Below are positions 8,395 through 57,090 of a stretch of DNA of 64,000 nt, in pieces. The DNA comes from an uncultured Candidatus Saccharibacteria bacterium (GTDB lineage: Bacteria > Patescibacteriota > Minisyncoccia > Minisyncoccales > GWA2-38-27): NCBI GenBank assembly GCA_964493085.1, contig CAZBLV010000013.1, positions 66,033 to 130,032 on the forward strand, written 5' to 3'. The translations under genes and the position numbers were made by a program. Under the pieces are notes generated by a model. That model was not told the DNA's origin, ran no database searches, and saw only the letters and a list, made by a program, of their open reading frames with translations. Positions within the stretch are counted from its first letter, which is position 1. Each line of letters opens with the position of its first letter.

Positions 8395-8433
8395 TGCTTG
8401 ATTTTTATATCATAAAAAGATAATATAGTGACC

Positions 8434-9462
8434 ATGAATCCTGTTATAATTTTTCTGGCCCTAATAATAGCCATTTTGGCTGCAGTAATATTTTTTCTTG
8501 CCAGAAAAAAACCCAGGAGAGACAGTTCTTTTTTAATGATTCAACAACAGCTGGACCAGCTTAATCGTTCCTTGGACAGCAAGTTATCCGAGTCCAATAA
8601 GGCTATTCAATCCCAGTTCGGACAAAGCACCAAGATAGTTAAAGAGGTTACTGAAAGACTGGGAAAAATTGACCAGACGAACAGGGAAATAGCAGATTTT
8701 GCCCAACAGCTGCAGTCCTTGGAAGACATTCTGAAGAATCCAAAGCAAAGAGGGATTCTCGGAGAATATTATTTGGAAGAATTGCTTAAAAACGTTTTTA
8801 GCCCCAATCAGTATCAGTTGCAGCACAAGTTTAAAGACGGGGAGATAGTAGACGCTGTTATTTTTTTAAGAGATGACAAGATTCTTCCAATTGATTCCAA
8901 GTTTTCTTTGGAGAATTACAATAAAATTATTCAAGAAAAAGACAAAGAGAGAAGAAAGCAGCTGGAAAAAGTTTTTTGCCAGGATCTTAAAAACCGGATC
9001 GAGGAAACAGCGAAATATATCAGGCCGAGTGAAGGAACCTTGGATTTTGCCTTTATGTTTATCCCGGCCGAGGCCATTTACTACGACCTCTTGGTTAATA
9101 AAATAGGGGCCATTCAAAGCAATACCAGGGACTTAATCGAATATGCAGTAAAAGAAAAAAAGGTTATTCCCGTATCCCCGACTTCCTTTTATGCCTATTT
9201 GCAGACAATCCTTCAAGGCCTAAGAGCTTTTCAAATAGAGAAGTCAGCCCAGGAAATTCGCCAGCGAGTGGAAGACCTGTCAAAGCATCTGGCTAATTAT
9301 GAAGAATATTTAAGAAAAACCGGCTCCTCCCTCAATTCTACAGTTTCAGCCTATAATAAAAGTTACAAGGCTTTCGGGAGAATTGATAAAGATATAACTA
9401 AAATTATTGATAAAAAATCTAAGGTCGAACCAAAAGAAATAGAAAAGCCAACCCAAGACTAA
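8434..9462 (+). CDS. rmuC: DNA recombination protein RmuC
   Basis: N-terminal TM helix, coiled coil, and an RmuC core (FAFMFIPAEAIYYDL, VIPVSPTSFYAYLQTI). ATG 8434 is preferred over GTG 8428 because TAATAT (8421-8426) lies 7 nt upstream. Confidence 0.85.
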   Translation: MNPVIIFLALIIAILAAVIFFLARKKPRRDSSFLMIQQQLDQLNRSLDSKLSESNKAIQSQFGQSTKIVKEVTERLGKIDQTNREIADFAQQLQSLEDILKNPKQRGILGEYYLEELLKNVFSPNQYQLQHKFKDGEIVDAVIFLRDDKILPIDSKFSLENYNKIIQEKDKERRKQLEKVFCQDLKNRIEETAKYIRPSEGTLDFAFMFIPAEAIYYDLLVNKIGAIQSNTRDLIEYAVKEKKVIPVSPTSFYAYLQTILQGLRAFQIEKSAQEIRQRVEDLSKHLANYEEYLRKTGSSLNSTVSAYNKSYKAFGRIDKDITKIIDKKSKVEPKEIEKPTQD

Positions 9463-9463
9463 T

Positions 9464-9778
9464 ATGTTAGCTGTAATAGAAACGGGCGGGAAACAATATC
9501 TTGTTAAGCCCGGCGACAAAATAAAAGTAGAGAAAATAAAAGGAAAAGAGGAAGATAAAACAACCTTCAGCCAGGTTTTGCTTTTGGAAAAGAACAAGAA
9601 GTTGGAGATAGGCGCTCCTTACGTCAAAGGAGCTAAGGTGGAAGCTAAAATCTTGTCTCAAGGGAAAGGAAAGAAAACCACTATTTTAAAATACAAGCCC
9701 AAGACCCGCCAGAAAACAAAAAAGGGGCATCGTCAGCCCTTCACTGAAGTAGAAATTGTAAAAATAGAACTAAAATAG
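9464..9778 (+). CDS. rplU: 50S ribosomal protein L21
   Basis: 104 aa with MLAVIETGGKQYLVKPGDKIKVEKI, typical of bL21. Confidence 0.95.
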   Translation: MLAVIETGGKQYLVKPGDKIKVEKIKGKEEDKTTFSQVLLLEKNKKLEIGAPYVKGAKVEAKILSQGKGKKTTILKYKPKTRQKTKKGHRQPFTEVEIVKIELK

Positions 9779-9787
9779 GCATAAAAA

Positions 9788-9815
9788 ACAGGGGGCAGTC
9801 CCTGTTTTTTTTTTA
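9788..9815. terminator. Bidirectional terminator between convergent rplU and recR
   Basis: Stem ACAGGG/CCCTGT with a 6-nt loop, an A-run upstream and a T-run (9806-9814) downstream. Confidence 0.7.
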
Positions 9816-10427
9816 TTTCCTTCCTTCAAAAGCGTTTTCTAGAGTTTCTTCATCTGCATATTCCAGCTCTCCTCCAGTAGGCAGGCCTCTTCCTAAGCGC
9901 GTTGTTTTTATTCTTAGGTCTTTAATATTCCTTTCTACATAAAGGGCTGTTGCTTCTCCTTCTGTTGTGGTGTCTGTGGCAATAATTATTTCCTTGAAGC
10001 CTGCCTTTATGCCGAATTTTTCGGGATTTTTAATTCTTTCTCTTAATTCCTTTATCCTTATTTTTTCCAAATTTTCTTTCTTCAAATTAGAAACAGTTCC
10101 TCCCAAGATAAAGTAAAGGCCTTTGTATTTTTTTGATTTTTCGATTGAAGCCAGATCTGCTTCTTTTTCCACCAAACAGATTAAAGATCGGTCTCTTGAT
10201 TTGTTGCGGCAGATAGGGCAGAGATTTTCTTTGTCTTCGTGAGGATTAAAGCAAAAATCGCATATCCTTATATCTTTTTTTAGCTGATTTAAGGACCTCA
10301 TTATATTCTGAAAATCGTTTTCTGGAAGGTTTATCAAATAAAAGACAAAACGGGCAGCAGTTCGCGGCCCGACAGTTGGAAATTTGCTGAAGATGTCAAT
10401 AATTTTTTTTATCTTCGGGGGATACAT
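9813..10427 (-). CDS. recR: Recombination protein RecR
   Basis: 204 aa with an HhH N-terminus, a C4 zinc finger (CDFC...CPIC) and a Toprim domain. Confidence 0.95.
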   Translation of the reverse strand: MYPPKIKKIIDIFSKFPTVGPRTAARFVFYLINLPENDFQNIMRSLNQLKKDIRICDFCFNPHEDKENLCPICRNKSRDRSLICLVEKEADLASIEKSKKYKGLYFILGGTVSNLKKENLEKIRIKELRERIKNPEKFGIKAGFKEIIIATDTTTEGEATALYVERNIKDLRIKTTRLGRGLPTGGELEYADEETLENAFEGRK

Positions 10428-11800: not shown

Positions 11801-13186
11801 TCAAATCCGGTTCCCGTTGGCAAGCTTGGTTATTTTAGGCCCCTGCTTCGTGTCTTCGATTTCAAAACCCTGTTTTTTTATCTTTTCCCTTATTCTGTCA
11901 GCTTTCTGCCATTTGTGTTCTTGCCTTAATTGTTCTCTTTTTTCTGCCTCTTCTTTTATCTGTTTTGGTATTCTTAAGGGCTTTGTCTTTTTAAGATCAA
12001 GACAAAAAACCTTGTCGAATTCTGCTAAGGTATTGTATTTCTCCTGATCTGAAATTTTCTTGTCTTTGATAAGATTCCAGGCCAAAGCCAGGGCCTGGGG
12101 CATGTTCAGGTCGTCTGAAATCGTCTTTTGAAATTCTCTCTGGTATTTTTTAGATATTTTTTTTGGGGTTTTTTTTAGCTTTGATATTTTCTCTTTCAGG
12201 TTGTTATAGCTATTCTGGGCGGACTGCAGTATTTCCCAAGAGAAGGTAAGCTTTTTTCTGTAATGGGTGTTTAGGCACAAATATCGATAGGCGAGGGGAT
12301 CGAACCCCTTTTCTTCAAGGTTTTTCAGGGTAACAATGTTTCCTTTTGATTTGCCCATTCTCCCCTCCTTTAAAACTAAAAATTCTCCGTGAAGCCAGAA
12401 GTTGGCCAGTTTTTTTTCGTATCCCGCCTTTGCCTGGGCTATTTCGTTCGGGTGATGCACTGTTATGTGGTCTACGCCTCCGCAATGGATATCCAAAGGC
12501 AGGCCCAGGTTTTCAGCTGCCATTACTACGCATTCGGTATGCCATCCCGGAAAACCCTTTCCCCAAGGAGAATCCCATTCCATTTGCCTTTTTACTCCGG
12601 GCTGGGTTAGTTTCCAAAGAGCAAAGTCTGCAGTACTCTTTTTCCCTTCTATTTTTTCTATTCTGGCTTTTGTCTCTTTTCTTTTCTCTTTTTGGGCTAT
12701 TCTTCCGTAATCTGGCAGTTTGCTGGTGTCAAAATATATCCCGTCTTTTATGGTATAGGTAAACCCTTTCTTCTCCAAAGTCTTTATCAGTTCAATCTGC
12801 TCTTTTATGTAATCTGTGGCTTTGCACCAGATATCAGGTTCTTTTATATTCAGCTTTTCTATATCTTCTTTAAAGGCCTTGGCATAGAACTCTGCTATTT
12901 CCCAAACTGTTTTCTTCTCTCTTTTAGCTCCCTTTTCCATCTTGTCTTCTCCTGTATCCTGGTCTGAAACAAGGTGTCCCACGTCCGTGATATTCATCGC
13001 GTGCTTTACCTTGTAGCCATTGTATTCTAAGGCCCCCTTGAGAAGGTCTTCAAAAATATATGTTCGAAGATTTCCTATATGAGCGTACCAGTAAACAGTG
13101 GGTCCGCAGGTGTATAAAGAAACCTTCTTGCCTTTTTGGGGTTTGAAGACTTCCTTTTTTCTGTTTAACGTATTATAGAGCTTCAT
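11801..13186 (-). CDS. cysS: Cysteine--tRNA ligase
   Basis: 461 aa with the class I motifs HIGN (AHIGNLRTY) and KMSKS-like RMGKSKGN. Confidence 0.95.
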   Translation of the reverse strand: MKLYNTLNRKKEVFKPQKGKKVSLYTCGPTVYWYAHIGNLRTYIFEDLLKGALEYNGYKVKHAMNITDVGHLVSDQDTGEDKMEKGAKREKKTVWEIAEFYAKAFKEDIEKLNIKEPDIWCKATDYIKEQIELIKTLEKKGFTYTIKDGIYFDTSKLPDYGRIAQKEKRKETKARIEKIEGKKSTADFALWKLTQPGVKRQMEWDSPWGKGFPGWHTECVVMAAENLGLPLDIHCGGVDHITVHHPNEIAQAKAGYEKKLANFWLHGEFLVLKEGRMGKSKGNIVTLKNLEEKGFDPLAYRYLCLNTHYRKKLTFSWEILQSAQNSYNNLKEKISKLKKTPKKISKKYQREFQKTISDDLNMPQALALAWNLIKDKKISDQEKYNTLAEFDKVFCLDLKKTKPLRIPKQIKEEAEKREQLRQEHKWQKADRIREKIKKQGFEIEDTKQGPKITKLANGNRI

Positions 13187-13192
13187 TGCTTT

Positions 13193-13201
13193 ATTCTACC
13201 A
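13193..13201 (-). promoter_or_regulatory. Extended -10 (TGgTAGAAT) 6 nt upstream of cysS ATG (leaderless geometry)
   Basis: The minus strand reads TGGTAGAAT-AAAGCA-ATG, with the ATG at 13186-13184. Confidence 0.45.
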
Positions 13202-13226: not shown

Positions 13227-13255
13227 TTGACATATTAACTATAATATTATATACT
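13227..13255 (+). promoter_or_regulatory. Sigma70-type promoter TTGACA-N17-TATACT
   Basis: TTGACA at 13227-13232, a 17-nt spacer and TATACT at 13250-13255, 60 nt upstream of the WG-repeat gene. Confidence 0.55.
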
Positions 13256-13315
13256 AGCTTTAGTTCGCTTTAACATCAAACACGTCAGAAACCCAAGAAA
13301 AAAAAGGAACAAGCA

Positions 13316-13957
13316 ATGAATGCGCTGACAAGAGATCAATTGAAAAAGAGGTACGACTTTGTCGGTCTCTTCTTCGAAGGCCTGGCTCAAGCTCGGAAAG
13401 GCAACAAGTGGTTCCACGTCCGCCCCGACGGCAGTCCTGCCTACGAGGCAAGGTACGACTTTGTCGGTCTCTTCTCCGGAGGCCTGGCCCAAGCTCGGGA
13501 AGGTACCTGGTGGTTCCATGCCCGTCCTGACGGCAAGCCTGCTTACGAGCAGAGGTACGACTCTGTCGGTCTCTTCTCCGAGGGCCTGGCTACGGCCGAA
13601 AAGAAGGGCGGAAGGTTTCACATCCGCCCCGACGGCAAGCCAGCCTATCGGGAGAGGTACGACTTTGTCTATCCCTTCTCCGAAGGCCTGGCTGCAGTCC
13701 GAAAGGACAACAAGTGGTTCCACATCCGCCCCGACGGCAGTCCTGCTTACGAGCAGAGGTACGACCATGTCGGCCCCTTCTCCGAAGGCCTGGCTCAAGC
13801 TCAAAAAGGCAACAAGTGGTTCCACATCCGCCCCGACGGCAGTCCTGCTTACGAGCAGAGGTACGACTATGTCGACCCCTTCTCCGAAGGCCTGGCTGTA
13901 GTCCGAAAGAACGCCAAGCGGTTCCACATCCGCCCCGACGGCGTCAGAGTGGACTGA
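13316..13957 (+). CDS. WG-repeat (KWG/WG_beta_rep-like) protein
   Basis: 213 aa made of six 34-aa units of the form RYDxVGxFSEGLAxAxKGNKWFHIRPDGSPAYEQ. No signal peptide is apparent. The gene is strongly GC-rich relative to its flanks. Confidence 0.8.
   Translation: MNALTRDQLKKRYDFVGLFFEGLAQARKGNKWFHVRPDGSPAYEARYDFVGLFSGGLAQAREGTWWFHARPDGKPAYEQRYDSVGLFSEGLATAEKKGGRFHIRPDGKPAYRERYDFVYPFSEGLAAVRKDNKWFHIRPDGSPAYEQRYDHVGPFSEGLAQAQKGNKWFHIRPDGSPAYEQRYDYVDPFSEGLAVVRKNAKRFHIRPDGVRVD
13349..13954 (+). repeat. Tandem repeat, 6 units of 102 bp (last slightly short)
   Basis: AGGTACGAC unit starts fall at 13349, 13451, 13553, 13655, 13757 and 13859, an exact 102-bp period. Confidence 0.9.
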
Positions 13958-13963
13958 CACCAA

Positions 13964-13999
13964 AGCCCTCTTAATCTGAAGATTAAGAGGGCTCTTTTT
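13964..13999 (+). terminator. Rho-independent terminator of WG-repeat gene
   Basis: 13-bp stem AGCCCTCTTAATC/GATTAAGAGGGCT with loop TGAA, followed by CTTTTTA. Confidence 0.75.
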
Positions 14000-14022
14000 A
14001 TGCGTGCGTGGAGTTGCGCGTG

Positions 14023-14083
14023 GAGGCCCGTCCTCTGCGGAAAACTCTGAAGGATTGTGGGAGGACGGGTCTCCCACATTTTA
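14023..14083 (+). promoter_or_regulatory. GC-rich structured element with two mutually exclusive hairpins (terminator-like plus long-range pairing)
   Basis: GAGGCCCGTCCTC (14023-14035) pairs with GAGGACGGGTCTC (14061-14073) with 1 mismatch. This competes with hairpin TGTGGGAG/CTCCCACA (14056-63 / 14071-78), which is followed by TTTT. Confidence 0.35.
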
Positions 14084-14156
14084 TAGCGCTTCTTGCTTTT
14101 AAAATTCCAAAAAGTTAATATGGAAAAAGGTTTTAATAAATTTCTAATTAGACATT

Positions 14157-14810
14157 ATGAAAAAAGCAGACTATATTTTTCCTTTAGTAATAGGCGAGGC
14201 CATTGCTTTAATCGCTCTTACAGTTTCCAAATTGGGGATATCTAAAACACTAAGCTTGCCGGACGTCGTAGATGAAATAATCGTTTATCTTCCCTTGGCT
14301 CTTCCTTTGCTTGCTTTATTGGGAACTATTATTGCTTTTTGGATCGGAAAGGCGTTTTCTGTTTTATTCCAGCTGGCAAAGTTTATTATGGTCGGAGCCC
14401 TGAATACTTTTGTCGACTTGGGCTACTTAAACATTTTGATATTGGTTTCAGGCGTAGCTTCAGGGTGGCTTTATTCTGTTTTTAAGGCTTTATCTTTTAC
14501 TTTTTCCGTGGTTAATTCCTATTTCTGGAATAAGTTCTGGACTTACGAGCACAAGGAAACCAAGGTAGGGGGGAGAGAATTCGGCAAGTTCTATTTAATA
14601 GCAGGAATAGGTTTTCTTTTAAATGTAGGAGTGGCCTCTTTTATCGTTAATATTGTCGGTCCCCAGTTCGGCTTTTCTCCTGAATTATGGGCTAATATAG
14701 GGGCCTTTACGGCCATAATCTGCGTTTTTATGTGGAACTTTCTGGGATACAAGTTTATTGTGTTCAGGAGCCGAGACAGAGAAGTTCCCATTGTTCCGCC
14801 TAAGAAATAA
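14157..14810 (+). CDS. GtrA-like polysaccharide-synthesis membrane protein
   Basis: 217 aa polytopic protein with GtrA motifs (VGALNTFVDLGYLNIL, NSYFWNKFWTY) and an N-terminal extension carrying extra TM helices. Confidence 0.8.
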   Translation: MKKADYIFPLVIGEAIALIALTVSKLGISKTLSLPDVVDEIIVYLPLALPLLALLGTIIAFWIGKAFSVLFQLAKFIMVGALNTFVDLGYLNILILVSGVASGWLYSVFKALSFTFSVVNSYFWNKFWTYEHKETKVGGREFGKFYLIAGIGFLLNVGVASFIVNIVGPQFGFSPELWANIGAFTAIICVFMWNFLGYKFIVFRSRDREVPIVPPKK

Positions 14811-14811
14811 T

Positions 14812-15927
14812 ATGTCCAACTTGGTTCTTTACCGGAAATACCGACCAAAGAAGTTTTCTGAGATTGTGGGGCAAGAGCATATAGTTAAAACTTTAACTAA
14901 CGCTGTTTCCCGTGAGACGGTTTCTCATGCTTATTTGTTTTCAGGTCCCAGAGGAACGGGGAAAACTACTACGGCCCGACTGTTTGCTAAGGCCTTGAAC
15001 TGCCATAATCGAAAACAAGGAACAGCAGAGCCTTGTAATAAGTGTTCTTCCTGTCTTGATATTATGCAAGGAAGATCCTTGGACCTGATTGAAATTGATG
15101 CCGCTTCCCATAGAGGGGTTGACGACATCAGAGAATTAAGGGAAGGAATCAAGTTTTCTCCTGCCAAAGAAAAATACAAGGTTTTTATTTTGGACGAAGC
15201 CCATCAGCTTTCCAAAGACGCAGTTAACGCCCTATTAAAAACCCTGGAAGAGCCTCCATCTCATGCTATCTTTATTTTAGCCACCACAGAAGTTCATAAA
15301 ATGCTTCCCACTATTATTTCCAGATGTCAAAGATTTGACTTTAGGAAATTAAAGCTTCCCGAAATAGAAAAAAGAATATCTCATATTTGCCAGAAAGAAG
15401 GGGTAAGAATAGAAAAAGCAGCTCTCGACCTTATTGCTTTAAACTCCGGAGGGGGAGCCAGGGACGCAGAAAGCCTGCTGGATCAGGTTTTAACTTTTGC
15501 CTTTACAGCCGATGCAGAAGAGATAAAAGCAGAAAAAGTAAGAGACATCCTGGGAATAGCAGACAATAGCTTAATAGGCCAGTTCTTAAAACACCTTGAA
15601 AACAATGACGCAGCCTCTGCTTTGAGGTTTTTAAACCAAATTATGGAGAAAGGGTATGATCCCCAGGAGTTTGCCAGAGCGTTGGTCAGATATTTGAGAC
15701 AGCTTTTGATACTGGAGATTAATCCGGACGACGAAAACTCCATTGTTCTCGGCTTAACAGAAGAAGAAAAACGCTCCTTTAAAGATCAGGCTAAGTCCTT
15801 GGGAGCCGGAAGGATTCACAGGATGATAGACCTTTTCTTGGATGCTGAAAACAAGATGAGATATTCTCCAATACCCCAGTTGCCTCTGGAATTGGCCGTA
15901 GTTGACATAACAGAGAAAGATAAGTAA
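14812..15927 (+). CDS. dnaX: DNA polymerase III subunit gamma/tau (short form)
   Basis: Starts MSNLVLYRKYRPKKF, with GPRGTGKTTTARL, a zinc module CNKCSSC and ILDEAHQLS. ATG 14812 is chosen over the track start 14758, which overlaps the GtrA-like gene. Confidence 0.9.
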   Translation: MSNLVLYRKYRPKKFSEIVGQEHIVKTLTNAVSRETVSHAYLFSGPRGTGKTTTARLFAKALNCHNRKQGTAEPCNKCSSCLDIMQGRSLDLIEIDAASHRGVDDIRELREGIKFSPAKEKYKVFILDEAHQLSKDAVNALLKTLEEPPSHAIFILATTEVHKMLPTIISRCQRFDFRKLKLPEIEKRISHICQKEGVRIEKAALDLIALNSGGGARDAESLLDQVLTFAFTADAEEIKAEKVRDILGIADNSLIGQFLKHLENNDAASALRFLNQIMEKGYDPQEFARALVRYLRQLLILEINPDDENSIVLGLTEEEKRSFKDQAKSLGAGRIHRMIDLFLDAENKMRYSPIPQLPLELAVVDITEKDK

Positions 15928-15930
15928 AAT
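15902..15930 (+). promoter_or_regulatory. Sigma70-type promoter TTGACA-N17-TAAAAT just upstream of tRNA-Gln
   Basis: TTGACA at 15902-15907 and TAAAAT at 15925-15930, overlapping the dnaX stop. The tRNA 5' end is at 15941. Confidence 0.45.
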
Positions 15931-15940
15931 ATATTTTTAT

Positions 15941-16014
15941 TGCGGGGTCGTCTAACGGTAGGACATTTGACTTTGACTCAAATGATCCAGGTTCGAATCC
16001 TGGCCCCGCAGCCA
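15941..16014 (+). tRNA. tRNA-Gln (anticodon UUG), CCA encoded
   Basis: Acceptor TGCGGGG/CCCCGCA (U1-A72 as in bacterial tRNA-Gln), anticodon stem TTTGA/TCAAA with loop CTTTGAC, T arm CCAGG-TTCGAAT-CCTGG, then G-CCA. Confidence 0.9.
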
Positions 16015-16131
16015 CCTTGAGCGTGGTTCGAGAGACCGATCCGCCTCATATTTTGACAAATGGTTCGATTTTATATTCCGGTACTCGTCCAGGACATCGA
16101 ACTTTGTTCGGGAAATGAACTAATCAAACTA

Positions 16132-16153
16132 ATCGCCAAAGAGGCGATTTTTT
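16132..16153 (+). terminator. Rho-independent terminator downstream of tRNA-Gln
   Basis: Stem ATCGCC/GGCGAT with loop AAAGA, followed by TTTTTT. Confidence 0.6.
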
Positions 16154-16234
16154 GATATAGTAAAAATATACTAAAGACGAATCAAGTATCATATATTTAT
16201 TCGTTAATTAATTTATTTAAATTTAATAAATAAT

Positions 16235-16858
16235 ATGAAATTTTATTTGTCTTCATATAAATTAGGCAATGGAGTCGCTAAATTAAAAGAATTAATACCT
16301 GCAGAAAATAAAAAAACTGCGTATATTTCTAACGCGCTTGATTTTTCAGATGATTTAGAAAGAAGAAAGAAAAGCGAACAATCAGATATAGAGGAACTTA
16401 AGGAGTTAAATTTAGATATAAAAATAATTGATTTACGGGACTATTTTAATAAACAAAGTGAATTAGAAAAGAAACTCACTGAGTTCGGCGTAATTTGGGT
16501 AAGGGGAGGAAACCTTTTCGTTTTAAGGCAGGCAATGAAGCTGAGCGGATTCGATAACATCCTAAAAAACTTAATTAAAAGAGACAATATCTTATACGGG
16601 GGATATAGTGCAGGTGTTTGCGTGTTAGCTCCATCATTAAAAGGTATGGATATAATAGACGATTTGAACGCAAAACCTTATGGAAATCAGTCGGAAATTA
16701 TTTGGGACGGCTTGGGAATTCTTAATTATTCTGTAGTTCCGCATTATAGATCGGATCATCCTGAATCAGAAAAAGCAGAAAAAGTTGTAGAATATATGGT
16801 AAAAAATAAAATTCCATTTAAAACACTCAAAGACGGCGAGGTTATTATTATAGAATAA
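16235..16858 (+). CDS. Peptidase E-like (S51 family) dipeptidase
   Basis: 207 aa with S51 hallmarks (VRGGNLFVLRQAM, nucleophile context YGGYSAGVCV, VVPHY). Confidence 0.8.
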   Translation: MKFYLSSYKLGNGVAKLKELIPAENKKTAYISNALDFSDDLERRKKSEQSDIEELKELNLDIKIIDLRDYFNKQSELEKKLTEFGVIWVRGGNLFVLRQAMKLSGFDNILKNLIKRDNILYGGYSAGVCVLAPSLKGMDIIDDLNAKPYGNQSEIIWDGLGILNYSVVPHYRSDHPESEKAEKVVEYMVKNKIPFKTLKDGEVIIIE

Positions 16859-19316: not shown

Positions 19317-19400
19317 ACAAACTTAAAAAGAGACGTTAAGCCGCCAAACTGTCAAGGAAATAAAAAAGTTTAAACCGCCCTCGCAAGAGGAGTGGTTTTT

Positions 19401-19409
19401 TGATAGAAT
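19401..19409 (+). promoter_or_regulatory. Extended -10 (TGaTAGAAT) 7 nt upstream of CYTH ATG
   Basis: TAGAAT at 19404-19409 and ATG at 19417, leaving no room for an SD. Confidence 0.45.
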
Positions 19410-19416
19410 AGAATAT

Positions 19417-19980
19417 ATGAAAAATGTAGAGATTGAAATACAAGCAAAAATAGGAGATATTAAAAAAGCAGAAAAAAGACTCAAAGAGGTCGGCAGCTTT
19501 GTGAGAGAAAGAAACCAGACAGACAAATATTTTGTTCTCCCTCAAAGAGATTTTTTCGAGGAAAAAGACATGCCAGACGAGTACTTAAGGATTAGAAAAG
19601 AGAAAGGCAGAAACCATATAAACTATTCTTTTCTCCATTTTAGCGAGAACGGATGGCTAAAATCGACAGACGAATATGAAACTTTGATTGACAAACCCGA
19701 GATTGCAGAAGAGATTTTTAAAAGGATTAATCTAATTCTCAAGGTAATAGTCAAAAAAACTCGCAAGTATTTTGATTGTGGCGATTTCGAGGTTACTTTA
19801 GACAGCATAAAGAACTTGGGTGACTTTATGGAAGTTGAAGCGAAAAAAGACTTTGGAGGAGTAGATAAAACAAGAAAGGCCTGTGAAGAATTTTTGAACA
19901 GTCTAAACATTGACCATGAGATCAGCAAGAACATGGGCTATCCCAGGATGTTGTATAAAAAACTTAACGGCCGCCATTGA
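19417..19980 (+). CDS. CYTH-domain protein (class IV adenylate cyclase / triphosphate tunnel metalloenzyme family)
   Basis: 187 aa with N-terminal VEIEIQAK (ExExK-like), YLRIRKEKG, and FEVTLDSIKNLGDFMEVEA, typical of CyaB/CYTH. Confidence 0.8.
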   Translation: MKNVEIEIQAKIGDIKKAEKRLKEVGSFVRERNQTDKYFVLPQRDFFEEKDMPDEYLRIRKEKGRNHINYSFLHFSENGWLKSTDEYETLIDKPEIAEEIFKRINLILKVIVKKTRKYFDCGDFEVTLDSIKNLGDFMEVEAKKDFGGVDKTRKACEEFLNSLNIDHEISKNMGYPRMLYKKLNGRH

Positions 19981-20785: not shown

Positions 20786-20788
20786 TTT

Positions 20789-21004
20789 ATGCCATCATAC
20801 GGCAACCCCAATCCGCCGAAAAGAAGCGAGATTAAACCCGGAGAGGCGGTTTGGATTATCGAAAAAGAGAATTACGGTACGGATAATTATAAGCAGGGCA
20901 TCGTAAAAGACATTTTGACATCTAAAAATTTTCATTCGCGGGGCATTAAGGTTCGGCTTATTGACGGTTCGGTTGGCCGAGTCCGGCGAATAATGGATAG
21001 TTGA
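20789..21004 (+). CDS. YwbE-family small protein (DUF2196)
   Basis: 71 aa. IKPGEAVWII...GIVKDILTSKNFHSRGIKVRLIDGSVGRVRRI matches the YwbE pattern. Confidence 0.7.
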   Translation: MPSYGNPNPPKRSEIKPGEAVWIIEKENYGTDNYKQGIVKDILTSKNFHSRGIKVRLIDGSVGRVRRIMDS

Positions 21005-23155: not shown

Positions 23156-23326
23156 ATGGAAGAGAGCTCGCATCAGTGCCTGACAACAGAACAGATGCAA
23201 AGGTGGCAAGCGGAAAACAACATGGAGAAACTGGCAGAAGCTGTCGTAATGGCGGTTCGGTGCCCCTTGTGCCGACGTGTTTGGATGAGGTTCTGGGCGA
23301 CCTCTCCGGCATCTCCCCGGGCGTGA
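23156..23326 (+). CDS. Candidate small ORF (56 aa, below ORF-track cutoff) in GC-rich leader of dgkA
   Basis: My translation is MEESSHQCLTTEQMQRWQAENNMEKLAEAVVMAVRCPLCRRVWMRFWATSPASPRA. It is preceded by GGAAAGGAAGGAAATC and followed by a terminator 13 nt after the stop. Confidence 0.3.
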   Translation: MEESSHQCLTTEQMQRWQAENNMEKLAEAVVMAVRCPLCRRVWMRFWATSPASPRA

Positions 23327-23955: not shown

Positions 23956-23962
23956 TTTTTTA

Positions 23963-42398: not shown

Positions 42399-42420
42399 AA
42401 ATATGATATAATGGCTTAAT

Positions 42421-44510: not shown

Positions 44511-44543
44511 CCTTAATAAGAAAAAAGTGTAGAATAACCCAAT

Positions 44544-46004
44544 ATGGGAGCCATTGAAGAGATAAAGAAAACAAGATTAAAAAAGAAAAAAGCCCTTGAG
44601 TCGGCCGGGCATTTAGTTTATCCCTTGAAGAACAAGAGAACTTATACCTGCCAGGAAGCTATTAAAAATTTTTCAAAGCTTTCCAGATCCAAAAAAGAAA
44701 TTATTTTGGCAGGAAGGATTATTTCCTTAAGGCAGCACGGAGCTCTTAGCTTTCTTAACCTTAAAGACGGCACCGGAAAAATTCAGGCCATGATAAAAAA
44801 AGACAGCTTGGGAGAAAAAGGATATGTTTTTTTTCTAGAGAACTTTGATGTCGGGGATTTTGCGGAATTAAAAGGGACTTTGATTAAGACGAAAAAAGGC
44901 GAGAAAACCTTGGAGTGCCGGGACTACAAAATTCTGGCTAAGTCTTTGCTTCCTCTTCCTGAAAAATGGCATGGCATAAAAGATGTTGAAGAAAGGTACA
45001 GAAAGCGCTATTTAGACTTAACATTCAACGAAGAGATAAGGAAAAAGTTTGAATCCAGGTCAGAGATAATAAAAAAGTTAAGGGATTTTCTAGAAAAAAA
45101 CGACTTTTTAGAGGTAGAAACCCCGATTCTGCAGCCTGTTTACGGCGGAGCTTCTGCCAGGCCCTTTAAAACACACTTAAACGCGCTGGATATTGACCTT
45201 TACTTAAGAATTTCACCAGAGCTTTATCTGAAGCGCTTGTTAATCGGCGGCTTTGAAAAAGTTTATGAAATTGGCAAATGCTTTAGGAACGAGGGCATAG
45301 ACAGGTTCCACAACCCCGACTTTACAATGCTAGAGTTTTACTGGGCTTACGCTGACTACAAAGATCTGATGAAATTGACAGAAGAGCTTTTTTCTTTTTT
45401 ACTGGAAAAGCTTTTTAAAAAAGAAAAGATCAGCTATCAAGGAAAAGAAATTAACTTTAAAAAGCCTTGGCTCAGAATAGAGTTTTCAGAATTGTTTAAA
45501 AAACATACAGGCATTGACTTGGAGGGAGTTCACTTGAACGTTCTTAAAAAAGAAGCGGAAAAGATTGGTCTTAGCCCCAAAGGAGGAAAGTTTGAAGTAG
45601 CAGATGAAATTTACAAAAAGACCTGTCTGCCCAAAATAATCCAGCCTACTTTTGTGATCCATTATCCTTCCTCTGCTTTTCCTTTGGCTAAACCCTTAGA
45701 GAAAGATCCTGAAAAATCGGGAAGCTTTCAACTAATCGTAGCGGGGATGGAGACAGTAAAAGCTTTTTCCGAACTTAACGATCCGGTATTGCAGAAAAAA
45801 AGGTTCAAAGAACAAGAAAAAATATTTAAACAGGGCTTTGAAGAGGCCCAGAGAATGGACAAGGACTTTATTGAGGCCCTAGAGTACGGCATGCCTCCGG
45901 CTGCCGGCTTTGGACTGGGGATTGACCGCCTTGTTGCCCTTTTAACTGATTCTCGGTCTCTAAGAGAAGCTATCTTGTTTCCCACAATGAAGCCCAAACA
46001 GTAA
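44544..46004 (+). CDS. lysS: Lysine--tRNA ligase (class II)
   Basis: 486 aa with an OB anticodon-binding domain and class II motifs (FRNEGID..HNPDFTMLEFY, GLGIDRL). Confidence 0.95.
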   Translation: MGAIEEIKKTRLKKKKALESAGHLVYPLKNKRTYTCQEAIKNFSKLSRSKKEIILAGRIISLRQHGALSFLNLKDGTGKIQAMIKKDSLGEKGYVFFLENFDVGDFAELKGTLIKTKKGEKTLECRDYKILAKSLLPLPEKWHGIKDVEERYRKRYLDLTFNEEIRKKFESRSEIIKKLRDFLEKNDFLEVETPILQPVYGGASARPFKTHLNALDIDLYLRISPELYLKRLLIGGFEKVYEIGKCFRNEGIDRFHNPDFTMLEFYWAYADYKDLMKLTEELFSFLLEKLFKKEKISYQGKEINFKKPWLRIEFSELFKKHTGIDLEGVHLNVLKKEAEKIGLSPKGGKFEVADEIYKKTCLPKIIQPTFVIHYPSSAFPLAKPLEKDPEKSGSFQLIVAGMETVKAFSELNDPVLQKKRFKEQEKIFKQGFEEAQRMDKDFIEALEYGMPPAAGFGLGIDRLVALLTDSRSLREAILFPTMKPKQ

Positions 46005-51183: not shown

Positions 51184-51192
51184 TGATATAAT
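51184..51192 (+). promoter_or_regulatory. Extended -10 (TGaTATAAT) 7 nt upstream of femAB-like ATG
   Basis: TATAAT at 51187-92 and ATG at 51200. Confidence 0.5.
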
Positions 51193-51199
51193 ACTTAAG

Positions 51200-52228
51200 A
51201 TGATTGTAAAAGAAATAAAAGATAAAAGGATTTGGGAGGAATTTCTTTCAGGGTGCCCGGAAAAAACTTTTTTAAACTCTTGGAACTGGGGAGAGTTTCA
51301 GCAAAAACAGGGGAATAAAATATGGAGACTGGGCATTTATAAGAAGGGCTTGGTTGGAGTGAGCTTGGCAATAAAAATTGAAGCCAAGAGAGGAACTTTT
51401 TTGTTTTTGCCGCACGGACCCAATATTAAAAACATGGCCGATAGCAAGGAGGTTTTAAATGTTTTGATTCCTTATTTAAAAAAGATAAAGGCTGGTTTTA
51501 TCAGGGTAGCCCCGATTTGGCAAAGGAACCAGGAAAATATAGATATTTTTAAAAACATGGGCTTTAAAGAGTCGCCTCTTCACATTCATCCGGAAGTAAC
51601 CTGGGAATTGGATATCCGACCTTCTGAAGAAGAAGTAACGGCAAACATGAGAAAGACTACCAGATATTTGTCCAGAAAAGCGGAAAGAAGCAAGGATATC
51701 AACATAATTAAGAGCAAAGACATTAAAGACCTGGAAAAATTTAACGAGGTTTATAAAGAAACCGCCAAAAGGCATAATTTTGTGCCTTTTTCTCTTGATT
51801 ATTTAAGGAACCAGTTTAATTCTTTTATTCAGGACGATCAGATTCTGATAATGCTCGGGGAATATAAGGGAAAAGTGGTTTCTTCTGCAGTGCTGGTTTA
51901 TTGGCAGAACATTGGCTTTTACCACCATGGAGCCTCTTTATCCGAATACAGGAAAATACCAGTCTCATACCTGCTTCAATGGGAAGCCATAAGAGAAGCC
52001 AAAACAAGGGGATGCCATAGTTATAATTTTTGGGGCATAGCTCCGGACATAAAGAAAAAAGAAGATTTATCCAAGTCCTCTCATCCTTGGGCCGGGATTA
52101 CGCTTTTTAAAATGGGCTTTGGGGGGAAAATCAAAGAATACGTTAAAACCCAGGATTTTCCTCTTTCTTTAACCTGTTATCTTACTCGCCTTTTTGAAAT
52201 GGCGAGGAAAAAGAAAAGAGGCTTATGA
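51200..52228 (+). CDS. FemAB-family peptidoglycan interpeptide-bridge aminoacyltransferase
   Basis: 342 aa from MIVKEIKDKRIWEEFL, with FLNSWNWGEFQ, MRKTTRY and YHHGASL typical of FemX/FemAB. The track start 51077 is a junk extension. Confidence 0.85.
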   Translation: MIVKEIKDKRIWEEFLSGCPEKTFLNSWNWGEFQQKQGNKIWRLGIYKKGLVGVSLAIKIEAKRGTFLFLPHGPNIKNMADSKEVLNVLIPYLKKIKAGFIRVAPIWQRNQENIDIFKNMGFKESPLHIHPEVTWELDIRPSEEEVTANMRKTTRYLSRKAERSKDINIIKSKDIKDLEKFNEVYKETAKRHNFVPFSLDYLRNQFNSFIQDDQILIMLGEYKGKVVSSAVLVYWQNIGFYHHGASLSEYRKIPVSYLLQWEAIREAKTRGCHSYNFWGIAPDIKKKEDLSKSSHPWAGITLFKMGFGGKIKEYVKTQDFPLSLTCYLTRLFEMARKKKRGL

Positions 52229-54779: not shown

Positions 54780-56286
54780 ATTGTTTTATTTTAAAAACCC
54801 AAAAACCTGCTATTTTTTCCGTTTTCGCCTCCGGGAATTTAGAATGAAGCTCAAGGAGAAGTCCTTTTTCCTCTTTTGTAATAACGACGATAAGGCCCTC
54901 CTTTTCTATTTTAATTTTATCAATTTCGTTTGGCAACAAATAATTGGTTTTAATCTGCCCCTTTTCTGATTTTTCCAGAAACTTTAAGGTTTCCACTGTT
55001 ACCGGATAAACAAAGACGTATTTCTCTCCGCATTCGGAATTAAGGTAATTGCCGACATCCACCAGATCTTTTGAAAAAGCTGATTCTACTTCCGGCCTTT
55101 TGGCCCAGTTATAAAAATACTTGTTGGCCTGAAAGAAAGCTAAAACTAAGGCCAGAATAGCTAATGAGGCTAAAACAAGCTTCTTCTTGGGCATTTTTTC
55201 AATCAGCCAATTGCAGCTCAATCCGCAAAGAATGTAAACAGGAGGAATTACTCCCAAGACTCTCAAGGCATGGGGTATGCCTTCAGCGCTTAAAAAGCCG
55301 GGCAAAAGCATTATTAAAAACCAAGAAAGTAGGAAAAAATGAATCATAAAAAGCGAACAATCCTTTCTTTTCAAAGAATAGATAAATTCTTTCAAAGAGT
55401 AAAACAAGCCTAAAAGAAAAAGAATTCCAACCGGCCAAAACAAAAGAGGAGACTCTGAAAAATTGTGCCGCCAATTGCCGTCGCCATAAAAATTGAACAT
55501 TCCCAAGTGAAGAATCACCGATTCTCCCAATTTTTTCAGCGGCTCCGGATGACTAAAGACGGAAACACCGCCGGCCCGTCCGAAAAAGTCTTCGGTATTT
55601 AAAAAGAAATAATAGCCGATAGGAAGAGATGACAAAAAAACAAAAATTAAAAGGACGGCTGCAGCTTTTGAAAAAAGCCCTAAATCCTTTTTCATCATCA
55701 AAAACCAGCTGAACAGAACGATTAATCCCAAAACAACGACAAACCGATAGGAAATATAAGTGTAAAAGCCAAGGCCTAAAAAAACACCTGCCAAGGCCAA
55801 ATGCAAATAATAAATTTTCTTTTTAGAGACTCCCTTAAAGCCCTTAAAAAGGAAATAAAAGCCAAAAGACATTAAAAGGGGCATTAAAATAGCTCGAAAA
55901 CCGATCCGGGAAAAATTGATGTGCCAGAAAGATATTGCCAGAAAAAAAGACGACAAAAGAGCTATCTTTTCTTTTTTAAAAAGTTCTTTAGCTAAAAGAT
56001 AGGTTCCTAAAATGGTTAGAGTGCCGAAGAAGGCAGGCACCAATCTAAAAGACCAAACAGAAGCACCGAAGAGATAATAAGAAAAAGAAAGAAGCCAAAT
56101 AAAGAGTCCCTCCCGGCCGTTGTTGTCAGGATAAAAGACTTTAAATTCTCCTTTTAGGGCATCGTTGGCGTTGACTGCTTCGTCAGGATAAAAGCCCGGC
56201 GGGACAGAATCGAGGCCATAAAACCTTAAAAAAGCTCCTAGGGCCAGTATAAAGAGAAGAATTATTATAACTGTTTTCTTTCGCAT
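54769..56286 (-). CDS. ArnT/PMT-like glycosyltransferase (second paralog)
   Basis: About 505 aa from MRKKTVIIILL, with GFYPDEAVNANDAL in the first loop, and polytopic. Start 56286 is supported by TGcTATAAT (56301-56293) 6 nt upstream. Confidence 0.75.
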   Translation of the reverse strand: MRKKTVIIILLFILALGAFLRFYGLDSVPPGFYPDEAVNANDALKGEFKVFYPDNNGREGLFIWLLSFSYYLFGASVWSFRLVPAFFGTLTILGTYLLAKELFKKEKIALLSSFFLAISFWHINFSRIGFRAILMPLLMSFGFYFLFKGFKGVSKKKIYYLHLALAGVFLGLGFYTYISYRFVVVLGLIVLFSWFLMMKKDLGLFSKAAAVLLIFVFLSSLPIGYYFFLNTEDFFGRAGGVSVFSHPEPLKKLGESVILHLGMFNFYGDGNWRHNFSESPLLFWPVGILFLLGLFYSLKEFIYSLKRKDCSLFMIHFFLLSWFLIMLLPGFLSAEGIPHALRVLGVIPPVYILCGLSCNWLIEKMPKKKLVLASLAILALVLAFFQANKYFYNWAKRPEVESAFSKDLVDVGNYLNSECGEKYVFVYPVTVETLKFLEKSEKGQIKTNYLLPNEIDKIKIEKEGLIVVITKEEKGLLLELHSKFPEAKTEKIAGFWVFKIKQYVQ

Positions 56287-56292
56287 TAAGAT

Positions 56293-56301
56293 ATTATAGC
56301 A
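56293..56301 (-). promoter_or_regulatory. Extended -10 (TGcTATAAT) 6 nt upstream of ATG 56286
   Basis: The minus strand reads TGCTATAAT-ATCTTA-ATG. Confidence 0.5.
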
Positions 56302-56329
56302 GAAAACAAAAAAAACCAATAATTTTCTT

Positions 56330-56356
56330 TTGTCACTCTTGACACTTGAGTGCTAA
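56330..56356 (+). promoter_or_regulatory. CIRCE operator (HrcA binding site)
   Basis: The sequence is TTGTCACTC-N9-GAGTGCTAA, against the consensus TTAGCACTC-N9-GAGTGCTAA, directly upstream of hrcA. Confidence 0.8.
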
Positions 56357-56367
56357 TTTTTTAAAAT
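56339..56367 (+). promoter_or_regulatory. Sigma70-type promoter TTGACA-N17-TAAAAT embedded in CIRCE
   Basis: TTGACA at 56339-44 lies in the CIRCE spacer. TAAAAT is at 56362-67 and the hrcA ATG at 56374, 6 nt later. Confidence 0.55.
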
Positions 56368-56373
56368 AAGAAT

Positions 56374-57090
56374 ATGAAAGGCCTAAGCCAAAGACAAGAA
56401 GACCTGTTGGGCGTCTTAATTAAAGACTATATCGATACTGCTAAGCCAGTTAGCTCAAAGCGTCTTCAGAAAAAATACAACCTTGATGTTTGCTCTGCCA
56501 CGCTAAGAGGGGAGATGCAAAAGCTGTCAGAACGAGGATATCTTAGGCAACCCCATATTTCTTCCGGCAGAGTGCCCACCAATAAAGCGTACCGGTTCTT
56601 TGTCGACCGAATACTGAAAGAAGATTGGGAAGAAAGTCCTGATATTTGCCTGGAAGAGCTAAAAGGGTTTGAGCAGGACATTTTCAAATTCACGGAGCTT
56701 GTTACAAGGGCTTTGGCCAAAAGTTCATCCAGTTTGGTAATAGCTTGCCTTTTAAGCAAGGGGCTTTTATGGGAAGAGGGATGGGAAGACGTTTTCCAAA
56801 TTCCGGAATTTGAAGAAAGGGCATTCAGAAATAAGTTTGTGAGAGAGGCCGAATCGCTGAAGAAAAAGATTAGAGATTTTTCCAGTTTGCCAGAAAGCAT
56901 TGATGTCTATGTCGGCAAGGAAGGATCGATTCTAGGCTCGCAAGACATTAGCTTAATAATCACTAAAAGCAGTTTTCCTGACAAAGAAGAGGGAATGATT
57001 GCTGTTTTGGGGCCGAATAGAATGCCATATGACAAAAATATTAGTACAATAAATTCTTTAATAAATTTACTAAACTATTTTAATGACTGA
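56374..57090 (+). CDS. hrcA: Heat-inducible transcription repressor HrcA (short form)
   Basis: 238 aa with the winged-helix N-terminus RQEDLLGVLIKDYIDTAKPVSSKRL...SATLRGEMQKLSERGYLRQPHISSGRVPT. Confidence 0.9.
   Translation: MKGLSQRQEDLLGVLIKDYIDTAKPVSSKRLQKKYNLDVCSATLRGEMQKLSERGYLRQPHISSGRVPTNKAYRFFVDRILKEDWEESPDICLEELKGFEQDIFKFTELVTRALAKSSSSLVIACLLSKGLLWEEGWEDVFQIPEFEERAFRNKFVREAESLKKKIRDFSSLPESIDVYVGKEGSILGSQDISLIITKSSFPDKEEGMIAVLGPNRMPYDKNISTINSLINLLNYFND

Follow-up and report, generated by a model that had tools for sequence, protein, structure and literature searches.

A −10 box that abuts the start codon of a leaderless gene is a layout well known in mycobacteria and Deinococcus. Mycobacteria also use GTG starts. 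Bacterial RNA polymerase usually starts transcription ~7 nt past the −10 hexamer and prefers a purine, and initiation at a 5′ AUG by the 70S ribosome or by 30S-IF2-fMet-tRNA is known from other bacteria. Extended −10 promoters of E. coli and Gram-positive bacteria normally precede a leader that bears a Shine-Dalgarno (SD) sequence. In the GeneMarkS-2 classification, group C (e.g., Mycobacterium tuberculosis, Streptomyces, and Corynebacterium) has a Pribnow box 6 to 8 nt upstream of the start codons of operon-first genes, and these genes lack an SD; 25 to 50% of units are leaderless (PMC6028130). The group B motif of Bacteroidetes is found before every gene, operon-internal ones too, and cannot be a promoter (PMC6028130). 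In Deinococcus deserti, 47% of mRNAs begin precisely at the start codon, and 60% begin there or close by (de Groot et al. 2014, PMC4007540). In candidate phyla radiation (CPR) ribosomes, bS21 is often absent and bS1 is short, and a search for the anti-SD motif found it in only 48% of Parcubacteria (Tsurumaki et al. 2022, PMC9297842). These ribosomal features point to a weak reliance on SD sequences.

We analyzed a window of 64,000 nt (G+C content, 40%) from an uncultured Candidatus Saccharibacteria bacterium (GCA_964493085.1, contig CAZBLV010000013.1, positions 66,033 to 130,032 of the forward strand). The host has a small CPR (Patescibacteria) genome. An initial annotation had placed −10 hexamers 6 to 8 nt before the ATGs of 13 genes, and on read-back the coordinates of all 13 main hexamer/ATG pairs were correct. 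Its gene names agreed with Pfam. Three more sites (ATGs 20789, 23425, and 42421) bring the leaderless-type genes to 16 in all. They are listed below, with d counting the bases that separate the final T of the hexamer from the A of the ATG.

8398 to 8436, + strand, rmuC (Pfam, RmuC): TTGATT at 8398 to 8403, 17-nt spacer, TAATAT without TG extension at 8421 to 8426, d = 7, ATG 8434.
13184 to 13201, − strand, cysS: TGGTAGAAT at 13201 to 13193, d = 6, ATG 13186.
19375 to 19419, + strand, CYTH gene: hairpin at 19375 to 19395, T-run at 19396 to 19401, TGATAGAAT at 19401 to 19409, d = 7, ATG 19417.
20773 to 20791, + strand, DUF2196/YwbE-like 71-aa gene (new): TGATAATTT at 20773 to 20781, d = 7, ATG 20789; the box overlaps the 3′ end of the preceding gene (stop at 20785).
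23409 to 23427, + strand, diacylglycerol kinase gene (new): TGTTAAAAT at 23409 to 23417, d = 7, ATG 23425; terminator-like hairpin upstream at 23344 to 23361.
23927 to 23981, + strand, UMPH-1-type (initially cN-III-like) nucleotidase gene: terminator at 23927 to 23949 with T-run, TGGTAAGAT at 23963 to 23971, d = 7, ATG 23979.
25777 to 25836, + strand, UvrD-helicase/PD-(D/E)XK nuclease gene: terminator at 25777 to 25796 with T-run, TGATAGGAT at 25817 to 25825, d = 8, ATG 25834.
31825 to 31891, − strand, 96-aa gene (no Pfam match): terminator at 31891 to 31868, TTGCGA at 31862 to 31857, 17-nt spacer, TAAAAT at 31839 to 31834, d = 6, ATG 31827.
32611 to 32628, + strand, thpR/LigT gene in a divergent intergenic region: TGCTAATAT at 32611 to 32619, d = 6, ATG 32626.
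35528 to 35546, + strand, aspS: TGTTATAAT at 35528 to 35536, d = 7, ATG 35544.
39935 to 39952, + strand, murD: TGTTAAAAT at 39935 to 39943, d = 6, ATG 39950.
42404 to 42423, + strand, murG (new): TGATATAAT at 42404 to 42412, d = 8, ATG 42421; internal to the mur cluster, 22 nt past the preceding stop.
44507 to 44546, + strand, lysS: TTGACC at 44507 to 44512, 17-nt spacer, TAGAAT at 44530 to 44535, d = 8, ATG 44544.
51184 to 51202, + strand, femAB-like gene: TGATATAAT at 51184 to 51192, d = 7, ATG 51200.
56284 to 56301, − strand, PMT/GT39-like glycosyltransferase gene: TGCTATAAT at 56301 to 56293, d = 6, ATG 56286.
56330 to 56376, + strand, hrcA: TTGACA at 56339 to 56344, 17-nt spacer, TAAAAT at 56362 to 56367, d = 6, ATG 56374.

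At the d = 8 sites and some of the d = 7 sites, the preferred transcription start would leave a leader of 1 or 2 nt. An AGGAG in the 6-nt gap of thpR was rejected as an SD; it ends 1 nt from the ATG, which is too close.

We counted the TG-extended box, TGnTAnnnT (123 sites in the window), before ATGs that open an ORF of at least 100 aa, taking the background from d = 12 to 60. At d = 6 to 8 there were 12 matches, compared with 0.7 expected (16-fold enrichment). The same spacing distinguished gene starts from other ATGs: at window scale, the TG-extended box preceded 12 of 68 gene-start ATGs but only 3 of 1,267 others (Fisher p = 4.6e-14; the gene-start list was curated by hand, and a blind first-ATG rule alters only 23979). 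Reversed and scrambled motifs gave 1 match each at d = 6 to 8 in the window and no peak. GTG and TTG likewise gave no spacing peak. In 150 kb of E. coli K-12 there was no peak (3 matches at d = 6 to 8 versus 1.8 expected), and a small positive control from Deinococcus gave 6 of 42 starts. Across a related sample of 80 Patescibacteria loci, 131 matches fell at d = 6 to 8 (74, 36, and 21, respectively) versus 24 expected, a 5-fold enrichment. We conclude that the abutting −10 boxes are a real, strongly nonrandom pattern.

Could A/T-rich intergenic DNA and TAA or TAG stops simply make chance TAnnnT hexamers near ATGs? At 40% G+C, plain TAnnnT is common (2,373 sites in the window) and only 1.6-fold enriched at d = 6 to 8, and TAGAAT and TAAAAT themselves contain stop codons. 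However, the TG-extended form is enriched in both the window and the loci, whereas reversed and scrambled motifs of the same composition are not, and these control motifs effectively refute a compositional accident already. The Fisher test (p = 5e-14), the convergence of the free hexamer positions on TATAAT, and the association with a −35 element (p = 5e-9) also argue against it, leaving it next to no likelihood.

We then considered the promoter character of the boxes. Over 141 aligned sites, the free hexamer positions were T (.50), A (.66), and A (.64), i.e., TATAAT. The base at −17 was T in.67 of these sites and resembles the "−16 region" (TRTG) of Gram-positive bacteria. Among non-extended hexamers at d = 6 to 8, 27 of 107 (25%) had TTG at −35, mostly with a 17-nt spacer, compared with 7% elsewhere (p = 5e-9). 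TG-extended sites had no such TTG enrichment (10% versus a 9% background). In the window, all four sites without TG (rmuC, the 96-aa gene, lysS, and hrcA) had TTGnnn at exactly 17 nt. Each site has either the TG extension or the TTG at 17 nt, as in extended −10 promoters of the sigma-70 type, where a TG one base upstream of the −10 replaces the −35; unlike those of model organisms, the boxes here are fused to the start codon. Because the TG-extended sites have no −35 signal, their status as promoters is argued solely from the −10 and TG logic. At hrcA, a CIRCE-like operator (TTGTCACTC-N9-GAGTGCTAA, 56330 to 56356) overlaps the −35 and the spacer. It has 2 mismatches to the consensus TTAGCACTC-N9-GAGTGCTAA (0.05 such matches expected by chance) and lies directly 5′ of hrcA-grpE-dnaK-dnaJ, as an inverted-repeat operator at a heat-shock operon promoter does. 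Together, these data support the view that the boxes would act like sigma-70 promoters. Most would be −35-less extended −10 promoters with the consensus T-rich-TGnTAnAAT, and the few without TGn would use a TTGnnn −35 with a spacer of 17 nt.

The same boxes might instead be read as a group B-type signal, with TAnAAT serving as an A/U-rich, non-SD element for ribosome binding or enhancement, carried on leadered mRNAs whose promoters lie further upstream. As in Bacteroidetes, many genes here lack an SD and upstream regions are A/T rich. The genome also clearly tolerates SD-free initiation: SD sequences were not enriched at operon-internal genes (−7 kcal/mol or lower in 1 of 27), and no SD precedes several of the leadered first genes (e.g., 61478 and 34951). 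Unlike the group B motif, however, the boxes are tied to unit-first genes. In the window, where counts are small, a TG-extended box at d = 6 to 8 preceded 10 of ~39 genes set at least 30 nt from their upstream neighbor but 2 of 27 set closer, and both of the latter have a short gap of their own. Strong terminators end 14 to 30 nt 5′ of boxes, too near for a further promoter and leader to fit between; at the CYTH gene, the T-run of the terminator-like hairpin merges into the box, its final T being the T of TGn. The invariant T-A...T of the −10, the TGn, its either/or relation with the TTG at 17 nt, and the CIRCE operator overlapping the hrcA element are likewise promoter features. We consider a ribosome-binding motif very unlikely.

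Our preferred reading, which we hold to be highly probable, is that sigma-70-type promoters are set so that transcription starts at the A of the ATG or 1 to 2 nt upstream of it. Given where RNA polymerase usually starts and its preference for a purine, the transcripts would be leaderless (leader of ≤2 nt), with a 5′-terminal AUG and no SD. The initial annotation had reasoned that a −10 abutting the ATG leaves no room for an SD and that the mRNAs would begin with the AUG or carry at most 2 nt before it. Every sequence-level test that we applied supports this core prediction: the sharp spacing, promoter logic, terminators, and orthologues do so, as does the absence of SD sequences (pairing with the anti-SD reaches −5 kcal/mol at none of the 16 leaderless-type genes). 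The start codon was ATG in 16 of 16. Translation would follow the leaderless route, with a 70S ribosome or 30S-IF2-fMet-tRNA recognizing the 5′ AUG. From the sequence, which shows the geometry, its statistics, the promoter logic, the lack of SD, and the recurrence in relatives, we infer where the transcripts begin and how they are translated. A terminator, a ~15-nt promoter, and a start codon would be packed into 40 to 60 nt, which fits a streamlined Patescibacteria genome.

The promoters could be real while transcription starts at or past these ATGs and translation at a codon further downstream, or while slightly shifted transcription start sites give leaders of 3 to 10 nt. The distance from the −10 to the transcription start varies between species (PMC12641261), and every d = 8 site has the sequence AAT-ATG, which puts an A at the canonical +1, 2 nt ahead of the start codon. 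However, Pfam domains start at residues 3 to 15 of the leaderless-type products, with profile positions 1 to 7 aligned there (UvrD, 8; MurG Glyco_transf_28 position 1, 3; MurD-like_N position 1, 8; CYTH, 5; CysRS tRNA-synt_1e, 14). In most ORFs the ATG is the first start codon past an in-frame stop, and the cysS ORF opens only 3 codons upstream of ATG 13186. The sharp d = 6 maximum in the 80 loci fits a +1 at the A of the ATG. We consider displaced starts very unlikely. Five start choices made earlier from the geometry (8434, 23979, 25834, 51200, and 56286) held up. For the nucleotidase, 23979 is favored because the terminator falls within the longer alternative ORF (ATG 23925). The UvrD-nuclease terminator also falls within a longer alternative ORF, and its start, TTG 25690, was rejected because the UvrD-helicase profile begins to match, at its position 1, from residue 8. 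GTG 51077 is unneeded for the femAB-like gene because its FemAB match pairs profile position 7 with residue 13. The alternative TTG 56319 of the PMT/GT39-like gene sits upstream of the box.

Leaderless transcription had initially been described as the apparent default for operon-first housekeeping genes. This was too strong, since only about 40% of unit-first genes are of the leaderless type: about 14 to 16 of ~41 (about 35 to 40%), or ~15 of the 25 that are functionally named (about 60%). Ten other first genes, mostly small ORFs, have TTGACA-17-TAnnnT-type promoters, leaders of 30 to 60 nt, and a strong AAGGAGG SD; the genome also uses this classic arrangement. Examples are as follows.

62846 to 62921, + strand, 118-aa ORF: perfect TTGACA-17-TATAAT at 62846 to 62874, SD GGAAGGGAG (−8.7 kcal/mol), ATG 62919, 44 nt from −10 to ATG, leader of ~38 nt.
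63316 to 63377, + strand: TTGAAA-17-TATATT, leader, SD AAGGAGAGG (−8.9 kcal/mol), ATG 63375.
25295 to 25361, + strand, 136-aa ORF: TTTACA-16-TAATAT, leader, SD AAAGGAG (−8.9 kcal/mol), ATG 25359.
30663 to 30843, + strand, 47-aa membrane ORF: TGGTATAAT at 30663 to 30671, leader, SD AAAGGAAGG (−8.1 kcal/mol), ATG 30700, followed by a terminator at 30851 to 30873.

Because about ten genes carry strong AAGGAGG sites, the organism evidently keeps a working anti-SD. First genes outside the leaderless type reached −7 kcal/mol or lower in 7 of 25 cases, compared with 5% of random positions. Two weaker cases from the initial annotation were rejected as −10 boxes, as their hexamers lack the final T: TAATAA-N6-ATG 37049 of the S11 peptidase/PBP5-like gene (37037 to 37051, + strand) and TAATTA-N6-ATG 14157 of the GtrA-like gene (14145 to 14159, + strand). 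Orthologues of the former had TAnnnT at d = 5 to 9 in 0 of 4 cases, and this gene may be cotranscribed with aspS; the latter has a TAATAT ~35 nt upstream instead. The murG, lysS, and DUF2196 genes lie 3 to 33 nt past the preceding gene with no terminator between and are therefore probably also read as internal cistrons.

The geometry recurs in relatives. Orthologues of aspS had TAnnnT at d = 6 to 8 in 31 of 75 cases (5.8 expected), and it was found in 8 of 9 dnaB orthologues and 4 of 5 of a PD-(D/E)XK-like gene. The signal was strongest in Paceibacteria-type loci (metagenome-assembled genomes; 53 versus 5.1 expected), and the TG-extended peak was absent from the sampled Moran-, Magasanik-, Falkow-, Veblen-, Woese-, and Gottesmanbacteria loci (3 versus 4.2 expected). 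As in group C, the −10 lies 6 to 8 nt from first-gene starts without an SD, is largely missing from operon-internal genes, and accounts for a comparable share of first genes. The host, however, is a low-G+C, ultrasmall member of the Patescibacteria rather than an actinobacterium, and most boxes are TG extended without a −35. Group C also keeps SD-type sites at internal genes, whereas here SD sites were enriched at leadered first genes but not at internal ones. Unlike mycobacteria, the leaderless-type genes start only with ATG. Deinococcus deserti shares the −10 directly 5′ of the start codon, but differs in phylum and base composition; that layout, as reported, is known from 5′ ends and proteogenomics and this one from sequence. 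Our literature searches found no description of abutting-promoter leaderless genes for this lineage, the text of a TM7x transcriptome preprint does not mention promoters or 5′ ends, and the study of Tsurumaki et al. (PMC9297842), on the same lineage, says nothing of leaderless mRNAs or of where promoters lie. We conclude that this is a known kind of layout, that of GeneMarkS-2 group C, in a lineage for which we found no description of it.

We tentatively suggest a broader possibility, which we regard as somewhat less than an even bet: −35-less, extended −10 leaderless initiation may be the main mode of core-gene expression in Paceibacteria-type CPR bacteria and may have coevolved with their reduced ribosomes, translation in this lineage then being essentially SD independent. 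If so, the frequent loss of bS21, the short bS1, and the partial loss of the anti-SD in Parcubacteria would all fit, as would the lack of SD enrichment at internal genes and the lineage specificity of the signal within the phylum.

The initial annotation had listed 13 main cases of a -10 hexamer close before the ATG of an operon-first gene, and all of its hexamers and ATGs read back at their places in the window. Counting the bases that separate the final T of the hexamer from the A of the ATG (d) gave 6, 7 or 8 in 13 of 13. We listed TGnTAnnnT sites, which carry the extended -10 (TGn), on both strands without gene annotation (n = 123). For each d, we counted the sites at which the ATG after the box begins an ORF 100 codons or longer, and took the expectation from d = 12 to 60.

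Sites at d = 6 to 8, observed and expected
Window, TGnTAnnnT: 12 (5, 5 and 2); expected, 0.7
Window, reversed motif: 1; expected, 0.9
Window, scrambled motif: 1; expected, 0.6
E. coli K-12 (150 kb), TGnTAnnnT: 3; expected, 1.8

The extended box stood at d = 6 to 8 before 12 of 68 ATG starts in the window versus 3 of 1,267 other ATGs (Fisher P = 4.6e-14). The start list for this test comprised 69 hand-curated gene starts, and a blind first-ATG rule would alter only 1 of the 12. In a positive control, Deinococcus radiodurans MP1 (50 kb), the box stood at 6 of 42 starts, a signal that is weak and from a sample too small for calibration. Three further sites fit the rule: ATG 20789 (DUF2196 gene), ATG 23425 (diacylglycerol kinase) and ATG 42421 (murG). 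A -10 hexamer requires its final T. Two weaker cases that had been proposed, at 37049 (TAATAA) and 14157 (TAATTA), lack it and gain no support from orthologues, and we dropped them. The spacing between -10 box and ATG is a real and statistically strong feature; we refer to the 16 genes that have it (13 plus 3) as leaderless-type genes.

Four lines of evidence, namely, consensus, either/or logic, context and an operator, argue that the boxes are promoters. The consensus comes from an alignment of 141 sites in the window and related loci, chosen solely for TGnTA...T. The free hexamer positions gave T (.50), A (.66) and A (.64), i.e., TATAAT, and the base at -17 was T in 67%. The either/or logic concerns the -35 element, for which TGn is known to stand in at sigma-70 extended -10 promoters. 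At TG-extended sites, an explicit test for TTG at -35 showed no enrichment (10% versus 9%); columns -23 to -21 are T-rich, but with the TTG test flat we do not claim a -35 for these sites. Among non-extended hexamers with d = 6 to 8, TTG was found at -35 in 27 of 107, versus 7% elsewhere (P = 5e-9), with a spacer of 17 nt prevailing. All 4 non-TG sites of the window have TTGnnn at exactly 17 nt.

-35 elements of the non-TG sites in the window
rmuC: TTGATT, 17 nt
96-aa gene: TTGCGA, 17 nt
lysS: TTGACC, 17 nt
hrcA: TTGACA, 17 nt

As for context, only 14 to 30 nt separate the end of a terminator from the box at several sites, and the terminator ahead of the CYTH gene has a T-run whose last T doubles as the T of TGn. 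Terminators placed so hard against the boxes leave little space for another promoter or a leader.

The operator is a CIRCE-like HrcA site, TTGTCACTC-N9-GAGTGCTAA, at 56330-56356, which overlaps both the -35 of the hrcA promoter and its spacer. It has 2 mismatches to CIRCE, and 0.05 chance matches are expected. In Firmicutes, CIRCE usually lies within the 5′ leader; the position over the hrcA promoter fits an mRNA that would have no leader to hold an operator. The hrcA-grpE-dnaK-dnaJ cluster also contains a 9-bp inverted repeat, CCCGCAGAT...ATCTGCGGG (58030-58062), in the 56-nt gap before dnaK; it is not CIRCE.

The geometry had also been put forward as a guide to true starts, and it proved sound by Pfam profile onsets, terminators and in-frame stops; Pfam likewise bore out the gene names. 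Family profiles open almost at residue 1 of leaderless-type proteins: position 1 of the UvrD-helicase, MurG and MurD-like_N profiles aligns with residues 8, 3 and 8, respectively, CYTH position 3 with residue 5, CysRS position 2 with residue 14 and FemAB position 7 with residue 13. Strong intrinsic terminators at 23927-49 (before ATG 23979) and 25777-96 (before ATG 25834) fall within the longer alternative ORFs, and in most leaderless-type ORFs an in-frame stop precedes the ATG, which is the first start codon. Every leaderless-type gene starts with ATG; at GTG and TTG starts we sought a peak at d = 6 to 8 and found none beyond codon periodicity. Separately, we rejected the minus-strand ORF 13247-14080 as probably a shadow of a plus-strand gene, a 213-aa ORF (13316-13957) with its own promoter and terminator:

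13227-55, plus strand: TTGACA-17-TATACT promoter for ORF 13316-13957
13964-93, plus strand: 13-bp terminator after ORF 13316-13957

Shine-Dalgarno (SD) signals were scored as the duplex energy of the upstream region against the canonical anti-SD.

Starts with SD scores at or below -5 and -7 kcal/mol
Leaderless-type (n = 16): 0 and 0
Other first genes (n = 25): 10 and 7
Operon-internal (n = 27): 6 and 1
Random positions (n = 3,000): 17% and 5%

The AGGAG of thpR ends 1 nt from the ATG, too close for an SD role. The SD-bearing first genes (e.g., ATG 62919, 63375, 25359, 23156, 30700 and 32520, and 34774 and 35398 on the minus strand) have sites such as AAAGGAAGG and AAGGAGAGG, TTGACA-17-TAnnnT promoters and leaders of 30 to 60 nt. 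The 3′ end of 16S rRNA was found neither in the window (Rfam) nor among the 80 Patescibacteria loci used for comparison; judging from its strong AAGGAGG sites, the organism has evidently retained a functional anti-SD. The 27 operon-internal starts (e.g., 9464, 14812, 46006 and 48042) showed no SD enrichment. Many of these genes overlap or adjoin the preceding stop codon, an arrangement that points to coupling or re-initiation, not SD-led initiation.

First genes of the SD class are for the most part small ORFs. In contrast to the leaderless housekeeping genes, these encode 47 to 118 aa, several of them membrane or Cys-rich zinc-ribbon-like proteins, and mostly have TTGACA-17-TAnnnT or TGn promoters, 30- to 60-nt leaders and strong AAGGAGG sites.

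Small ORFs
23156-23326, plus strand
30700-30843, plus strand
34951-35109, plus strand; leader present, SD absent
61176-61361, plus strand; SD-bearing, directly after tRNA-Lys
62919-63275, plus strand
34553-34774, minus strand
35156-35398, minus strand

Promoters nearly touch the mature 5′ end at two tRNA genes (4597-4614 and 15902-15941). At tRNA-Glu, TGGTAAATT stops 8 nt upstream, and at tRNA-Gln, TTGACA-17-TAAAAT stops 10 nt upstream; the predicted 5′ leaders are merely ~1 to 4 nt. tRNA-Lys (61065) lies directly behind dnaJ and so requires processing. Between tRNA-Gln and the gene at 16235 (16014-16235), ~115 nt are unannotated and end in a terminator (16131-49). The next elements are a TGATATAGT box (16153-61) and 73 nt of A/T-rich sequence up to ATG 16235 (leader, ~66 nt). 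This region may encode a small RNA, act as a regulatory leader or do both; at the gathering threshold, Rfam gave no match in it.

We counted a gene as unit-first if at least 30 nt separated it from the gene upstream or if that gene was divergent. There are ~41 in the window: 14 to 16 are of the leaderless type, 10 combine a leader with a strong SD and ~13 have neither signal. The description of leaderless transcription as the default is too strong for 14 to 16 of ~41, but this is the commonest single arrangement, and it accounts for the majority (~15 of 25) of unit-first genes of recognizable function, the named housekeeping genes.

Among the 80 loci (1.2 Mb), 74, 36 and 21 sites stand at d = 6, 7 and 8, versus a background of ~8 per position. 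The geometry returns at orthologues despite differing sequences: TAnnnT lies at d = 6 to 8 in 31 of 75 aspS orthologues (5.8 expected), and the geometry is kept in 8 of 9 dnaB orthologues and 4 of 5 orthologues of a PD-(D/E)XK-like gene. The dnaB of the window, 11 nt after cysS, has no box, indicating that the feature follows unit-first position and not gene identity. The TG-extended signal is strong among loci of the Paceibacteria type (53 versus 5.1) and at background (3 versus 4.2) in nine Moran-, Magasanik-, Falkow-, Veblen-, Woese- and Gottesmanbacteria loci (L034, L037, L040, L055, L060, L068, L071, L075 and L079), where plain -10 boxes show a weak excess (13 versus 5.1). From this small sample comes a hint, as a lead only, that promoter or initiation styles differ between lineages of the phylum. 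The window itself (40.3% G+C, three tRNA genes, no rRNA) encodes an AspRS 62 to 66% identical to proteins of MAGs that bear the labels Nealsonbacteria, Paceibacterota and Patescibacteria group, which assigns it to a CPR bacterium of the Paceibacteria/Parcubacteria type. Contigs assembled from run SRR2989655 carry a gene for the same AspRS.

RNA polymerase usually starts ~7 nt past the -10, with a purine preferred. At d = 6, the canonical +1 would be the A of the ATG; at d = 7, that A would lie one base beyond it; and at d = 8, the sequence is AAT-ATG in 3 of 3 sites, which puts an A at the canonical +1 and predicts a 2-nt leader. The AUG of the predicted transcripts would be 5′ terminal or near terminal. 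In other bacteria, mRNAs with a 5′-terminal AUG are translated without an SD, and we infer by analogy that these transcripts would be as well.

Nothing mechanistically new is revealed. The arrangement matches group C of GeneMarkS-2, common in Actinobacteria and Deinococcus-Thermus, in which the Pribnow box lies 6 to 8 nt from first-gene starts and 25 to 50% of units are leaderless (PMC6028130). Departures from group C are the host lineage, the predominance of TG-extended boxes that lack a -35, the restriction to ATG starts and the lack of an SD at internal genes. It also matches the leaderless transcriptome of Deinococcus deserti, which was mapped by experiment (PMC4007540). For the CPR, Tsurumaki et al. 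detected the anti-SD motif in only 48% of Parcubacteria, with bS21 frequently lost and bS1 short, and leaderless mRNAs go unmentioned (PMC9297842). A full-text literature search, with few subscription journals covered, found no description of leaderless organization in Patescibacteria, and a TM7x transcriptome preprint has no text on promoters or 5′ ends.

The practical use lies in start-codon annotation and expression design in Patescibacteria. Gene finders that score SDs can choose wrong, longer starts in CPR metagenome assemblies; 5 such cases in the window were settled by the -10-to-ATG rule and upstream terminators. Expression constructs for cultivable Patescibacteria may need TGnTAnAAT, 6 to 7 nt and ATG, not promoter-plus-RBS cassettes. 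Terminator, promoter and start codon within 40 to 60 nt illustrate genome streamlining, and the finding ties the ribosome reduction reported for Parcubacteria, and their partial loss of the anti-SD, to a specific mode of initiation that can be tested.
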